The translations under genes were made by a program, and so were the position numbers. Source: Melioribacteraceae bacterium (GTDB lineage: Bacteria; Bacteroidota; Ignavibacteria; Ignavibacteriales; Melioribacteraceae). From it: a stretch of DNA of 32,440 bases. This document shows, in pieces, positions 5,813 to 10,199 of the stretch. The stretch covers positions 1 through 32,440 of the forward strand of contig JAQICK010000097.1 in the NCBI GenBank assembly GCA_027858595.1. Reading direction: 5' to 3'. How positions within the stretch are numbered: the first letter of the stretch is position 1; the number at the start of each line of letters is the position of its first letter. Under the pieces are notes generated by a model, which saw only the letters and a program-made list of their open reading frames with translations, ran no database searches and was not told where the DNA came from.

Positions 5813-6592
5813 TTATTTTGTAGAAACAATTAAATTGAAATTTTTATTTAGCAGCTCTGTGAATAATGAAAACAGAGCTGTGAATATTTCTTCTTGATTA
5901 GCTAATTGGTTTAATTTGACAACCAACCCATTCCACCCCTCTGTGTGCCACTCAGCAAATTCTGGCAATTCAATTTTTAAAAGTGTTTTGTCGAAAGGAT
6001 AGGCGGTTACATAAAAATATGGTTGCGGTATTCCTGCATCACCTGATGATAAACCAAAATTCATTTGCTCGCGCGAATAATCCCAATTAGTTTCGTCTTG
6101 CCCATCAATAAGCTTTCCAGAAAACACTAGCAATGCTAAATCGAAATGATGAGGCCAAAAGTTTATATTACTTTTTTCTTTTAATGTTGAACCCCGAAGT
6201 TTCAAAAACAAAAAATATACTTGGCGGAACAGATTCCACAATTTTGAAATTTCATACGAACTTAAAATAGCGACTAACTTTTTTGTAAACTCAGCAATTG
6301 ATGTTTGCTCAAGAGCAATTTCATCTCTGTTATTTTTGAAGAATATTTTAAGTTTATGTTCAATTAAATTTATGTTTAATTCAAGTGCTTCTATTCCATT
6401 ATCAGTTTGAATAGGAATGGAAGTGGTTGTAAATCCTTTTGCATAAACTTTTAAGCTAAACTCTTCCCAATTTTTTTGATGAGGAACCAGTTTCCCTTTT
6501 ATAGCACTAATCAATTGAGCATATATTTGAATAGTGTCTCTTGTTTTAGCAAAATTATTATATTCTATTTGCGGCAATATTATGATTTCCAA
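5813..6592 (-). CDS. DUF5996 family protein
   Basis: 259 aa. The N-terminal pattern (TRDTIQIYAQLISAIKGKL...KNWEEFSLKVYAKGFTTTSIP) and the C-terminal pattern (HFDLALLVFSG ... PYFYVTAYP) match my recollection of DUF5996 proteins. It starts 16 nt downstream of the preceding gene. Confidence 0.65.
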   Translation of the reverse strand: MEIIILPQIEYNNFAKTRDTIQIYAQLISAIKGKLVPHQKNWEEFSLKVYAKGFTTTSIPIQTDNGIEALELNINLIEHKLKIFFKNNRDEIALEQTSIAEFTKKLVAILSSYEISKLWNLFRQVYFLFLKLRGSTLKEKSNINFWPHHFDLALLVFSGKLIDGQDETNWDYSREQMNFGLSSGDAGIPQPYFYVTAYPFDKTLLKIELPEFAEWHTEGWNGLVVKLNQLANQEEIFTALFSLFTELLNKNFNLIVSTK

Positions 6593-6608
6593 TTTTTAAA
6601 CTTCCTTA

Positions 6609-8552
6609 TTATATTAATTCGACATCAGCCATAACTTCAACCATCGAAGGTCCACTGTGTTCAATGGCTTTCACTATTGCAGATTCTAAATCTTCCTTTT
6701 TTGTTACTCTAATCCCATATGCACCACAATTATTTGCATATTCAGAAAAATTGGGATTAACTAAATCAGTTTCCCAAACATTAAATTCATCAGCTTTTTG
6801 CTCTTTGGATATTTTTCCAAGTTCATTATTGTTTAACAAAATATGAGTGATATTCATATTATATTTTACAGCAGTTGTTAGTTCGGCCAAATATTGAGCA
6901 AATCCACCATCGCCAGTAATAGCTATTATTTTTCTATTTGGTTCTGCCGCAAAAGCTCCCATTGCTGCTGGATAACCAAAACCAATTGATCCAAGATAAC
7001 CTGACATAAGTATTGATTGGTTTTTACACTCAAAATATCTTCCAAAAGAATAAGCATTGTTTCCAACATCAACGGTTATAACTGCATTCTCTGGAACAAC
7101 ATTACTTAGCACCTCAAAAATTAGAGCAGAGTTTAATCCATTGCCATTGTCATCCTTTGTTCTGCTCGATTTTTCATCTCGCCATATTTTCCAACGTGAT
7201 GCAATATCATCACGTATTTTTGAATCGCCGGAATGTTGAATTAATCCGTTATTTAAAATATCAACAGTTGTTCCAATTTCTCCCCAAACCGGAATGTCAA
7301 CTTTATGAAATTTCCCAAGTGCCATCGGATCAAAATCAACTTGAATTATTGGTCGGAATGTAGCAATACCAGTATGATTAGAGAATGATGCTCCCAAAAC
7401 AATAATGAGATCCGAAGCATTCATAAAGTAGCTTGCAATCGGTGTTCCACTTCTTCCCAAAACTCCACACGCCAATGGATGAGAATCTGGAACTAATCCT
7501 TTTCCCTTAAATGTTGTAATTATCGGAGCTTCTATTTTCTCGGCAAACTTAATAATAGAACTCATATTAAACTTAGCTCCATTGCCAAGAATAATACACG
7601 GACGCTTCGCCGTTTTTATCTTTTCCATAGCATCTTTAACTGAACTAGCGGGAGGAGTTATTCTTAAATCAGTCAATCTTCCTTCTGGAGATGATGCAGG
7701 AGTTTCATCGCCTACTTCAATTTCTTGAACTTCGTTTGGAAATATTAAATGGGCAACATCTCTTTTTAAAATTGCATTTTTAAGTGCAAGCGTCATCAAC
7801 TCAGCATGTTTACTGGATGGCAAAACTGTTTGGCTCCATTCTGCAACTGAACTGAAAGCAGAGGATAAATTAACTTCTTGGAAAGCACCTGGACCTAAAA
7901 CTTGTGTATCAACTTGCCCAGTTAATGCAAGTATTGGAACTCTATCAACCTTTGCATCCCATAAACCAGTGAGCAAATTAGTTGAACCGGGACCAGCTAT
8001 TGCAAAGCATGCAGCGGGTTTTCCAGTAAGTTTTGCATAACCAGATGCTGCAAATGAAGCAGCTCCTTCGTGACGAATTCCAAAATATTTAAGTTTTCCT
8101 AACTCTACTTGTCGTCTTATTGCATCAGCCAATCCAAGATTTGAATGTCCGACCATACCGAAAACTGAATCAACTCCCCAGTTAATCATTGTTTCAACCA
8201 TTACATCGGATACAGTTTTAACGTGAGGTTTCTCTTCTTCAATTCCAATAGAGATGTTATCTTCATTCACTTCAATTGGATAAGTTGTAACTAAATCATC
8301 AAGTCCAGCCGGTGGTTTACCAGTGCAAGGATGATATTCATAACCGTGCCAAGGACAACGGAGCCATCCTTCTTCAATGGAGCCTTCGCCCAATGGGCCG
8401 CCTTGATGCGGACAGTGGTTATCAATTGCACGGAACTTTCCTTCAAACAAAGAAAGAGCAACAGTCTTTGTGCCAGCAGTTACAGTTTTTACACGACCTT
8501 CTTCAAAGTCACTAACCTTAGCAACCTTATACCACTTAATGATTTTTTCCAT
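6609..8552 (-). CDS. Rieske [2Fe-2S] domain fused to a thiamine-diphosphate enzyme (pyruvate oxidase / acetolactate synthase-like)
   Basis: The N-terminal ~105 aa carry CPH-x17-CPWH (all Rieske ligands present). The rest is a three-domain ThDP enzyme (GMVGHSNLGLADA..., IAGPGSTNL) with the ThDP motif GDGGFAQYLAELTTAVKYNMNITHILLNNNELG. Confidence 0.85.
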   Translation of the reverse strand: MEKIIKWYKVAKVSDFEEGRVKTVTAGTKTVALSLFEGKFRAIDNHCPHQGGPLGEGSIEEGWLRCPWHGYEYHPCTGKPPAGLDDLVTTYPIEVNEDNISIGIEEEKPHVKTVSDVMVETMINWGVDSVFGMVGHSNLGLADAIRRQVELGKLKYFGIRHEGAASFAASGYAKLTGKPAACFAIAGPGSTNLLTGLWDAKVDRVPILALTGQVDTQVLGPGAFQEVNLSSAFSSVAEWSQTVLPSSKHAELMTLALKNAILKRDVAHLIFPNEVQEIEVGDETPASSPEGRLTDLRITPPASSVKDAMEKIKTAKRPCIILGNGAKFNMSSIIKFAEKIEAPIITTFKGKGLVPDSHPLACGVLGRSGTPIASYFMNASDLIIVLGASFSNHTGIATFRPIIQVDFDPMALGKFHKVDIPVWGEIGTTVDILNNGLIQHSGDSKIRDDIASRWKIWRDEKSSRTKDDNGNGLNSALIFEVLSNVVPENAVITVDVGNNAYSFGRYFECKNQSILMSGYLGSIGFGYPAAMGAFAAEPNRKIIAITGDGGFAQYLAELTTAVKYNMNITHILLNNNELGKISKEQKADEFNVWETDLVNPNFSEYANNCGAYGIRVTKKEDLESAIVKAIEHSGPSMVEVMADVELI

Positions 8553-8570
8553 TTCTATTCCTTTAATATT

Positions 8571-10199
8571 TTAGGCTATTCCACCAAATTTTATTCCACT
8601 AAGTTTTGCCATATCTGGATTGAAAGTAGTTAAATCTTTTTGATTGAATTTATCTAGCTGATTGTATCCACATGCTCTTGCTAAGACTTTCATAAGTCCA
8701 GTTGTAGCCTCAAGGTAATTTTGTAATAATTTTGCTGATTCATTTATTATAATGCGAGAGCGAAGGTCTTCCTTCTGCGTTGCAATTCCAACCGGACAAT
8801 TATTAGTATGACATGCACGCATTCCTAAACATCCAATTGCTTGAATAGCAGAGTTTGAAATTGCAATTCCATCTGCTCCGAGAGCTAATGCTTTTATGAA
8901 ATCAGATTCAGTGCGTAAACCACCTGTAATAATAAGGGTTACATGAGTTGCTCCCTTTTTATTCAAGTGTTTTCTAGCTCGAGCTAATGCTGGAATTGTT
9001 GGCACGGAAATATTGTTTTTGAAAATATTTGGAGCAGAGCCTGTTCCACCGCCTCTTCCGTCGAGAATAATATAATCGGTGCCAGCTTCGAGAGCAAAGT
9101 CAATATCATCTTCAATGTGCTGAGCTGATATTTTAAATCCAATCGGAATTCCACCAGAGACTTCTCTCACTTTGTCAGAAAAGATTCTAAAATCTTCTGG
9201 AGTTGTTAAATCATCAAATGTTGATGGACTAATTGCGGCAGTTCCTTCTTCTAATCCACGAACCTGAGCGATTTTCCCTTTAACTTTATCGCCTGGCAAA
9301 TGACCACCAGTTCCAGTCTTTGCCCCTTGTCCAGCTTTGAAATGAAACGCTTGAACATTTTTACCATTATCAAAACTCCACCCAAATTTTGCAGATGCGA
9401 GTTCATAAAAATATTTTGAATTATTGTCATGTTCTTCTGGAAGCATACCGCCTTCACCAGAACAGATTCCAGTTCCGCTTAACTCAGCACCTTTTGCAAG
9501 AGCAACTTTTGCTTCTTCGCTTAATGCACCAAAGCTCATATCACTTATGAATATTGGAATATCTAACTTGAGTGGTTTTTTAGCATTTGGACCAATAATT
9601 AATTCGGTTGAAACTTCATCATCATCAAAAAGTGGCTTGCGTGAAAGCTGTGCAGTCAGGAGTTGAATATCGTCCCATCTTGGTAATTCTGGAATAGGAA
9701 CGCCCATTGCAGAACCAACTCCATGTTTGCCAATTCCTTTAGCACCTTGTTTTGCTAATTTTTGAATGTAACTATTATTTGGTTCATCCTGAGTTCCGTG
9801 AATGTCTGCATACAGTCCAAGGTATTTATCTCTATTGTATGGTTGTGGATTTTCTTTTTCCCATTTGATTATTTCATTTTCATCAACAAAGACAGCATCG
9901 GTTTCTTCATCAATCCATGATGAAAATTCTTGAAGTTGCTCTTCGTTATTATATTCACTGTTTCCAGTATCGATGCGATAATCCCAAAAATGGAGTCCAC
10001 AAATTAGATTATCTCCAGAGACAAATCCATCAGATAGTAATGCTCCACGATGTAAACATCTTCCGTAGAGTACAGACACTTTTTCGTCGTATTTAATAAT
10101 TACTAAATCTACTTTTGCAATCAGGGCATATGTTGGAGTTCTATCTTCGAGATGACTGAAAGTTGCAACTCTAATTTTAGAAGTTTTGCTATTTGTCAT
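8571..10199 (-). CDS. Rieske [2Fe-2S] domain fused to a glutamate-synthase-type FMN/3Fe-4S domain (GltS-related protein)
   Basis: The N terminus carries CLH-x16-CGLH. The C-terminal part has GltB central-domain motifs: KAGQGAKTGTGGHLPG, DGRGGGTGSAP, and C-x5-C-x4-C followed by CPVGIATQ. It ends 18 nt before the next gene. Confidence 0.85.
   Translation of the reverse strand: MTNSKTSKIRVATFSHLEDRTPTYALIAKVDLVIIKYDEKVSVLYGRCLHRGALLSDGFVSGDNLICGLHFWDYRIDTGNSEYNNEEQLQEFSSWIDEETDAVFVDENEIIKWEKENPQPYNRDKYLGLYADIHGTQDEPNNSYIQKLAKQGAKGIGKHGVGSAMGVPIPELPRWDDIQLLTAQLSRKPLFDDDEVSTELIIGPNAKKPLKLDIPIFISDMSFGALSEEAKVALAKGAELSGTGICSGEGGMLPEEHDNNSKYFYELASAKFGWSFDNGKNVQAFHFKAGQGAKTGTGGHLPGDKVKGKIAQVRGLEEGTAAISPSTFDDLTTPEDFRIFSDKVREVSGGIPIGFKISAQHIEDDIDFALEAGTDYIILDGRGGGTGSAPNIFKNNISVPTIPALARARKHLNKKGATHVTLIITGGLRTESDFIKALALGADGIAISNSAIQAIGCLGMRACHTNNCPVGIATQKEDLRSRIIINESAKLLQNYLEATTGLMKVLARACGYNQLDKFNQKDLTTFNPDMAKLSGIKFGGIA

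Follow-up and report, generated by a model that had tools for sequence, protein, structure and literature searches.

A portable three-gene cassette of two Rieske-fused redox enzymes and a DUF5996 protein in a Melioribacteraceae bacterium and across many phyla

Introduction

The closest described relatives of the locus reported here are the ferredoxin-dependent glutamate synthase (Fd-GltS) of Synechocystis (1LLW) and the archaeal split GltS; the pyruvate:ubiquinone oxidoreductase PoxB of Escherichia coli (3EY9) and the Lactobacillus pyruvate oxidase (POX); the three-component Rieske oxygenase chains, exemplified by naphthalene dioxygenase; flavocytochrome b2 (L-lactate:cytochrome c oxidoreductase); and MgsC (N-methylglutamate synthase). 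Here we describe a cassette of three genes from a Melioribacteraceae bacterium (assembly GCA_027858595.1, contig JAQICK010000097.1), in which the analysed stretch of 32,440 nucleotides is referred to as the window. The cassette encodes a Rieske domain fused to a GltS-type flavin mononucleotide (FMN) synthase domain (protein G), a Rieske domain fused to a PoxB-like thiamine diphosphate (ThDP) enzyme (protein T) and a DUF5996 protein (protein D). G-T-D is a portable and widely conserved three-gene redox module, with DUF5996 as an accessory protein that mostly adjoins G; the module is widespread and unusually conserved. Every domain family involved is already known, and thousands of copies of the proteins lie in the databases under generic names. 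A full-text literature search found no publication on either Rieske fusion or on DUF5996, and neither a 2021 review of iron-sulphur (Fe-S) flavoenzymes nor the MES ergothioneine paper mentions these fusions. The search agrees with the initial annotation of the window, whose author knew of no characterised system with this architecture. No description was found of the two Rieske-fused flavoenzymes plus DUF5996 as a conserved mobile module, of its function or of its link to ergothioneine genes.

When the cassette is set beside these systems, G shares with Fd-GltS and the split GltS the PF01645 FMN TIM barrel, the C-x5-C-x4-C site and the counterparts of E903, Q969, K972 and R992, and in both cases an Fe-S protein is expected to deliver the electrons one at a time. 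In GltS this protein is a free plant-type ferredoxin or GltD, whereas in G it is a fused Rieske domain. T resembles PoxB and POX in being a three-domain ThDP enzyme with the catalytic Glu and the GDG...NN motif, and by homology it probably contains flavin adenine dinucleotide (FAD) and carries out oxidative decarboxylation. It differs from PoxB in lacking the C-terminal lipid-activated membrane peptide and in possessing an N-terminal Rieske ferredoxin as the presumptive electron exit. The order of a flavin source, a Rieske ferredoxin module and a Rieske-bearing terminal enzyme recalls the Rieske oxygenase chain, but the source in the cassette would be a 2-oxo acid acting via ThDP/FAD instead of NAD(P)H, the ferredoxin is fused to the 'reductase' in T, and G would be an FMN/[3Fe-4S] reductase instead of a mononuclear-iron oxygenase. 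Flavocytochrome b2 also combines an FMN TIM barrel acting at the C2 of a carboxylic acid with an N-terminal one-electron carrier domain; its carrier is haem b5 instead of a Rieske domain, its barrel has no Fe-S cluster and it works oxidatively. MgsC, like G, is a protein with a stand-alone PF01645 FMN domain, but it has no Rieske domain and its partners are MgsA (amidotransferase-like) and MgsB (GXGXG).

Domain composition of the three proteins

The three open reading frames (ORFs), their coordinates on the minus strand and the gaps of 18 and 16 nt were all found as the initial annotation had given them (Table 1), and an AGGA-type Shine-Dalgarno-like motif is present in both spacers. The proposed domain content was borne out by the Pfam analysis, in which Rieske, Glu_synthase, TPP_enzyme N, M and C and DUF5996 all scored well above threshold. 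The statement that the catalytic bodies of the two fusions are unrelated, one being GltS synthase-type and the other PoxB/POX-type, also held.

G is composed of a Rieske [2Fe-2S] domain (residues 10-106; E 3e-10, 40 bits, cutoff 20.3), a conserved linker and a GltS-type FMN TIM-barrel synthase domain (Glu_synthase PF01645, residues 196-512; E 5e-88, 296 bits against a cutoff of 20.4), and it ends 30 residues past the latter. The Rieske ligands are arranged as C48-L-H50-x16-C67-G-L-H70. A Cys triad, C457-x5-C463-x4-C468, followed by PVGIATQ, is predicted from the sequence to form a [3Fe-4S]-type site. The C-terminal 350 residues gave PDB alignments solely to synthase domains of GltS alpha subunits, including 1LLW. 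In the alignment with the Synechocystis enzyme, E903, Q969, K972 and R992 correspond to E249, Q291, K294 and R314 of G, and C1137, C1143 and C1148 to the Cys triad; all of these positions are invariant in a 15-member alignment of G homologs. Residues E903, Q969, K972, Q978 and R992 belong to the synthase site of GltS and have catalytic roles there. According to Pfam, G lacks the N-terminal nucleophile (Ntn) amidotransferase domain, the central domain and the GXGXG beta-helix (PF01493), and its score for the NCBIfam GltS equivalog PRK11750 was 142 bits against a cutoff of 1047. G is a member of the PF01645 superfamily, but with these domains missing and its score below the cutoff it does not qualify as a glutamate synthase proper. 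It probably acts on a 2-oxo or 2-imino carboxylic acid. A Foldseek search with the AlphaFold2 model of G ranked GltS alpha subunits at the top, followed by FMN enzymes of the flavocytochrome b2 type. Database names for G homologs include 'glutamate synthase', and the JGI annotation calls some of them MgsC. The MgsC identity was rejected, as the partners MgsA and MgsB were near G in no locus examined.

T begins with a Rieske-ferredoxin-type domain (residues 6-102; E 2e-17, 63 bits, cutoff 20.3), which is followed by a three-domain ThDP body of the PoxB/POX/acetolactate synthase clade (TPP_enzyme_N, _M and _C, each E 1e-32 to 1e-36). Its Rieske ligands are C47-P-H49-x16-C66-P-W-H69; the spacer of 17 residues reported for T in the initial annotation was off by one, and T has x16 as G does. 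The ThDP/Mg motif GDG...NN lies at residues 547-576. E162 aligns with the catalytic Glu of the PoxB RHE motif and is invariant in the T family alignment, as is GDGG. The nearest PDB structures to the body are those of E. coli PoxB (3EY9/3EYA, E 4e-71), followed by acetohydroxyacid synthase (AHAS) and Lactobacillus pyruvate oxidase. Since PoxB, POX and AHAS all bind FAD, the middle domain of T probably binds it as well. The alignment does not extend past residue 527 of the 572 in PoxB, and T itself ends 5 residues further on, which indicates that T is devoid of the lipid-activated C-terminal membrane/quinone peptide. T fell below every NCBIfam equivalog cutoff; the best model was a pyruvate oxidase (PRK08611, 416 against 742), and the ubiquinone-dependent pyruvate dehydrogenase model PRK09124 gave 315 against 792. 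Homologs of T are named 'pyruvate oxidase', 'thiamine pyrophosphate-binding protein' or 'Rieske 2Fe-2S domain-containing protein' in the source databases. In one homolog, on a Nitrospirales chromosome (L021), the reading frame is interrupted by a stop that follows codon 113, where the Rieske and ThDP parts meet; the gene may be a pseudogene or may have split to give a free Rieske ferredoxin and an enzyme, or the stop may stem from a sequencing error.

Both N-termini proved to be genuine Rieske domains, as proposed in the initial annotation: their PF00355 matches exceed the cutoff, the ligand sets are complete, and all four ligands are invariant in the G and T family alignments. The further description of the two modules as 'matched' did not hold, because the domains of G and T are only about 25-30% identical and belong to different subtypes. 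The T domain matches soluble Rieske ferredoxins along its entire length, namely the naphthalene dioxygenase ferredoxin (2QPZ, E 7e-13), CarAc and T4moC. The G domain is more divergent; its best PDB match was the Rieske domain of the oxygenase subunit NdmA (E 3e-5), and dioxygenase ferredoxins came next. Judged by the best PDB matches, both resemble the low-potential Rieske proteins of oxygenase systems more than those of bc1/b6f complexes, and on inspection neither sequence contains the additional disulphide-forming pair of cysteines that marks high-potential Rieske proteins of the bc1 type. No Pfam domain for a non-haem-iron oxygenase catalytic centre (2-His-1-carboxylate) was found in G, in T or in the rest of the window.

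D matched Pfam DUF5996 (PF19459; E 4e-29, 102 bits, cutoff 25), the match being broken in two by a 22-residue deletion. It is a single-domain alpha+beta protein, modelled by AlphaFold2 with a mean predicted local distance difference test (pLDDT) score of 84. No PDB sequence matched D, and none of the Foldseek matches of its model was better than E 0.035. Residues E139, S141, W146, H149, D151, Q176, N178, D185 and the P191-Y-x-Y motif are invariant in the alignment, and the conserved motifs read WPHHFD, REQMNFG and PYFYVT; the invariant polar residues suggest a catalytic or metal site. A DUF5996 profile search of 1.8 billion representatives returned 3681 representative clusters, and no fusion was seen among the top 150 matches listed. 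The 22 residues missing from D of the window, around codon 112-115, are present in all 29 aligned homologs. The segment reads YEI[KLDKLDEKFFAKDELTYDRNEI]TKLW in the closest relative, with a repeated 'EI' at its borders, and the gap is situated in a variable loop of low pLDDT. The gap may have arisen naturally, by deletion in frame, or through misassembly.

Conservation and gene linkage across genomes

Protein searches returned at least 8000 candidates for each fusion, all those for G with E <1e-10. The best 120 matches of G all combined Rieske and Glu_synthase domains, each at 71% identity or above, and 119 of the 120 best T matches listed shared the architecture of T. Mean column identity in the 15-member G alignment, which covers Ignavibacteria, Calditrichota, Chloroflexota and Bacteroidota, was 80%; the linker is largely invariant in it, and the Rieske ligands and the Cys triad are entirely so. 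A genome scan using one genome per species yielded at least 594 confirmed G loci, of which 80 were kept for analysis, all at 65-72% identity. They belonged to Gemmatimonadota, Myxococcota, Planctomycetota, Acidobacteriota, Nitrospirota, Chloroflexota, Bacteroidota, Alphaproteobacteria and Verrucomicrobiota, and to the archaeon Halobellus. In total, both fusions have thousands of database members at 65-75% identity across phyla, a level usual for core metabolic enzymes, and the carriers are soil and marine bacteria of at least 12 phyla plus one haloarchaeon. Cultured carriers, which make direct testing possible, include Plesiocystis pacifica, Roseibium denhamense, Fulvivirga sp., Acanthopleuribacter pedis, Sulfidibacter corallicola and Halobellus ordinarius.

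Linkage was evaluated in well-flanked loci (at least 3 kb on each side), with neighbours sought within 10 kb by hidden Markov models on six-frame translations and by tblastn. Among 54 such genome loci seeded with G, T was nearby in 22 (41%), DUF5996 in 13 and neither in 28; G was near T in 10 of 16 (63%) well-flanked metagenome loci seeded with T. This survey supported the proposal that G and T are conserved neighbours, which they are in many phyla, often though not always. The gene order varied: G-T-D in the window and in L081, L084 and L086, G-D-T in L036 and L073, T-G-D in L044 and L070, T-D-G in L006, and G-T alone in L074, L076 and L077. D stands directly beside G more often than beside T. 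In L154 and L120 the cassette genes overlap at stop and start codons, a sign of translational coupling. One lineage whose T is 80-83% identical to that of the window carries G-D in one place and a monocistronic T elsewhere on the same 551-620 kb contig; an unlinked T is thus not an absent T. All-against-all clustering of about 1900 neighbouring ORFs revealed no other conserved neighbour family in more than 11 loci. Likewise, the 149 immediate flanking ORFs showed no dominant theme in Pfam, the commonest family being an Na+/H+ exchanger (6 ORFs), and genes for a ferredoxin, a reductase, GltD or an amidotransferase were not conserved neighbours in the surveyed loci. Frequent linkage, shuffled order and unrelated flanks together mark the cassette as a real functional unit, one that can be split. 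The Na+/H+ exchanger-family gene was the commonest extra neighbour (L064, L067, L069, L074, L076, L077, L096, L115 and L117) and sometimes lies between G and T, e.g., in L117.

Ergothioneine and msr genes near the cassette

In the window, the cassette is followed by the genes for EanB, DUF427 and EgtD/EanA, with a gap of 236 nt between D and EanB. Their downstream position, as well as the divergent radical SAM gene on the other side of the operon, both described in the initial annotation, were confirmed by Pfam/NCBIfam and sequence matches. The ergothioneine genes are a recurrent neighbour outside the core cassette, as they adjoin it in four independent lineages (the window with L081 and L086; L063; L129; L154). 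The full six-gene order G-T-D-EanB-DUF427-EgtD is kept in L086, and in L081 EanB starts right after D, with only its first 55 residues present before the contig end. L063 has G-D-EgtD, with EgtD alone and the contig ending there. L129 encodes T-EgtB-EgtD-DUF427 and then a distant DUF5996 protein (hhalign 98%) on a single strand, and in L154 G-T stands beside EgtD-EgtB-EgtA. Two types of ergothioneine chemistry are therefore represented, EanB in the clade of the window and EgtB with or without EgtA in L129 and L154. On EgtD frequencies that we assume, about 0.1-0.5 such cases would be expected by chance in 2.2 Mb. The link between ergothioneine genes and the cassette looks real, but concerns a minority of loci; we flag it as a recurrent and unexplained genomic link. 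In three of these loci DUF427 accompanies EgtD, and ergothioneine clusters may include it as a hitherto unrecognised component.

Genes for MsrA and MsrB flank G-D or T in three lineages, against about one expected, which is near chance level for such ubiquitous genes: L168 and L171 carry a G-D-MsrB operon with MsrA upstream, and in L160 MsrA-MsrB lies just upstream of T. ECF sigma factor and MarR genes were also seen near the cassette in several loci.

Proposed electron flow and its alternatives

The reading we tentatively favour, at somewhat short of an even chance, is that T feeds electrons to G, which uses them for a reduction. T would oxidatively decarboxylate a 2-oxo acid, most likely pyruvate, and the two electrons would leave singly from ThDP via FAD to its own Rieske ferredoxin domain. 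The latter would dock on the Rieske domain of G, within which the electrons would pass from Rieske to [3Fe-4S] to FMN, and the FMN would reduce a 2-imino or 2-oxo acid that binds in the manner of a GltS substrate. The substrate could be 2-iminoglutarate formed from free ammonia, as no amidotransferase is present. In some lineages a membrane haem-b/Rieske protein would act as an alternative donor or overflow acceptor, and DUF5996 may supply or process the substrate of G or aid its maturation. Two pieces of background favour this direction. Since oxidative decarboxylation of the POX type is practically irreversible, T is expected to be the donor; characterised GltS synthase modules are reductive and receive single electrons via the 3Fe-4S cluster, so G should be the acceptor. 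Coupling of ThDP-dependent oxidation to FMN-dependent reduction is plausible, being chemically sensible and weakly supported by the Rieske subtypes. The proposal keeps the direction of flow of the initial annotation and abandons its notion of a 'self-contained' couple, since G or G-D often occurs without a nearby T and a membrane protein joins in some loci (see below). If T does drive G, 2-oxo-acid oxidation would be directly coupled in a new way to a reductive amination-type reaction, with no pyridine nucleotides or free ferredoxin; the hand-off from a Rieske ferredoxin to a Rieske domain, so far known from oxygenase systems, would gain a new use, and DUF5996 would acquire a functional context. 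A fuller version appears doubtful to us: a reductase that is powered by 2-oxo acids and needs neither NAD(P)H nor free ferredoxin, with a Rieske-Rieske relay and DUF5996 as a third subunit for a nitrogen or sulphur substrate, tied to ergothioneine/thiol defence against oxidative stress.

Several observations weigh against an electron relay from T to G. In G, Q978 of GltS is replaced by an invariant His300, E975 by Thr and PPHHDIYSIEDL by SPSTFDDLTTPEDF, and 2-oxoglutarate may for this reason not be its substrate. The full-length AlphaFold2 model of G has low confidence (pLDDT 65), at which the geometry between the Rieske and FMN domains cannot be judged. The subtype call for the Rieske domain of G is a weak one (E 3e-5 versus 4e-4). 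G, alone or with D, had no T within 10 kb in 32 of the 54 well-flanked loci, and T stood alone in L169 and L170, although G-D was present elsewhere on the same contig. Domain content, conserved residues and gene linkage are shown directly, whereas FAD binding in T, the other cofactors, the cluster types, the substrates, the T-G contact and the direction of flow are all points that we infer. Furthermore, a membrane fusion of Ferric_reduct (haem-b, MsrQ/NOX-like) and Rieske domains joins the cassette in 12-13 loci (examples in Table 1), together with a Cys-rich protein of about 255 residues without a Pfam match and often also a transmembrane protein of about 70 residues. In L049 this membrane protein is encoded beside G with no T nearby. 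Its presence suggests exchange with a membrane carrier, and the association is fitted equally well by a carrier in the membrane that both enzymes share. T and G would then be separate dehydrogenases or reductases, each plugging its Rieske domain into one external electron carrier, for example the Ferric_reduct/haem-b+Rieske protein with the quinone pool, or a soluble partner; in one version, the two would act in succession in catabolism, G oxidising an amino acid to a 2-oxo acid and T, like a PoxB devoid of the lipid tail, feeding respiration by oxidative decarboxylation of that acid. The clustering of the three additional genes with G and T, an identity of 36-43% between the Rieske domains of the membrane protein and T, the loss of the quinone/membrane tail of PoxB from T, the frequent separation of G and T and the coincidence of the product class of G (a 2-oxo acid) with the substrate class of T all speak for such an arrangement. 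It is the main alternative; we nevertheless consider it rather unlikely, because the membrane protein is missing from about 90% of the loci and from the window, which contains neither the ~255-residue nor the ~70-residue protein, because no other carrier gene is conserved nearby, and because the persistent, though permuted, adjacency of G and T would be unneeded if they only shared a distant partner. To our knowledge, moreover, no characterised GltS-type synthase module runs oxidatively in vivo.

The presence of ergothioneine genes of two chemistries beside or interleaved with the cassette in four independent lineages, the MsrA and MsrB arrangements and the nearby ECF sigma and MarR genes would be accommodated if the cassette served the redox metabolism of low-molecular-weight thiols or sulphoxides, for example by clearing pyruvate and ammonia arising from ergothioneine sulphur transfer or by providing NAD(P)H-independent reducing power under oxidative stress. 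We regard this as improbable, given that more than 95% of the loci have no ergothioneine gene within reach, that the msr association does not rise clearly above chance and that D and eanB are well separated in the window; we also know of no chemical step of any known ergothioneine route that requires enzymes such as G and T. Similarly remote is the explanation that the proteins are ordinary enzymes of central metabolism: G would be a glutamate synthase that uses ammonia and has a fused ferredoxin, T a pyruvate oxidase or dehydrogenase, and they would work independently and be neighbours only by shared regulation, with DUF5996 being unrelated. The database names 'glutamate synthase' and 'pyruvate oxidase' and the retained core catalytic residues agree with it. 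It is opposed by scores far under the NCBIfam equivalog cutoffs for GltS and pyruvate oxidase, by a three-gene linkage that persists in permuted form across phyla and with translational coupling, and by the very strong conservation of the whole fusions, linkers included.

Other features of the window

The window has a GC content of about 32%, and the best named matches were Ignavibacteria and Melioribacteraceae; with the Por_Secre_tail genes of close relatives, these features point to a probable origin in the Ignavibacteriota/Bacteroidota group. As the initial annotation had stated, it holds no amidotransferase, GltD or ferredoxin gene, according to Pfam on ORFs of at least 100 residues and a Cys-motif scan of small ORFs. 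A promoter and terminator scan returned counts at shuffle level and is hence uninformative on the limits of the operon. The radical SAM/SPASM gene upstream of G was rejected as a member of the system, since no counterpart was found among about 170 related loci.

Table 1. Positions of the cassette, its neighbours and other features in the window, and of selected features in related loci
Feature	Sequence	Positions	Strand	Remarks
G, Rieske + GltS FMN/[3Fe-4S]	window	8571-10199	minus	542 aa; ATG start
G-T spacer	window	8553-8570	minus	18 nt; contains AAAGGAA, Shine-Dalgarno-like
T, Rieske + PoxB-like three-domain ThDP enzyme	window	6609-8552	minus	647 aa; ATG start
T-D spacer	window	6593-6608	minus	16 nt; contains TAAGGAAG, Shine-Dalgarno-like, before the TTG of D
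D, DUF5996 protein	window	5813-6592	minus	259 aa; TTG start; N-terminus agrees with homologs
Ergothioneine genes, whole block	window	2798-5576		
EanB	window	4290-5576	minus	orthologue; E 5e-200 to 6KTV/6H98
DUF427 gene	window	3833-4183	minus	downstream of EanB
EgtD/EanA	window	2798-3796	minus	TIGR03438 above cutoff
Radical SAM/SPASM gene	window			divergent from G, 215 nt upstream
PIN-domain toxin gene	window	11640-11990	plus	
DUF971/GBBH-like_N gene	window	12078-12416	minus	
IS-type DDE transposase	window	15911-17443	plus	
TatD_DNase + radical SAM ORF	window	19821-21179	minus	452 aa
Ergothioneine genes	L086	3664-6319		
EgtD	L063	3371-4288		
Ergothioneine genes	L129	6085-9413		
Ergothioneine genes	L154	6169-10506		
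G-D-MsrB operon, MsrA upstream	L168	3478-8309		
G-D-MsrB operon, MsrA upstream	L171	3757-8942		
MsrA-MsrB	L160	3-790		
Membrane Ferric_reduct + Rieske locus	L049	7537-9368		
Membrane Ferric_reduct + Rieske locus	L077	13614-15827		
Membrane Ferric_reduct + Rieske locus	L117	8681-11119		
Membrane Ferric_reduct + Rieske locus	L094	14446-16299		
T homolog with in-frame stop	L021	12588-14582		

The transposase, PIN toxin and DUF971 genes are located between the radical SAM gene and housekeeping genes, which suggests a locally rearranged region. Por_Secre_tail genes were found in the loci of close relatives. Further along the window, one ORF is an unusual fusion in which a complete TatD_DNase domain (E 4e-87) is joined to a radical SAM domain at the C-terminus (E 3e-17).

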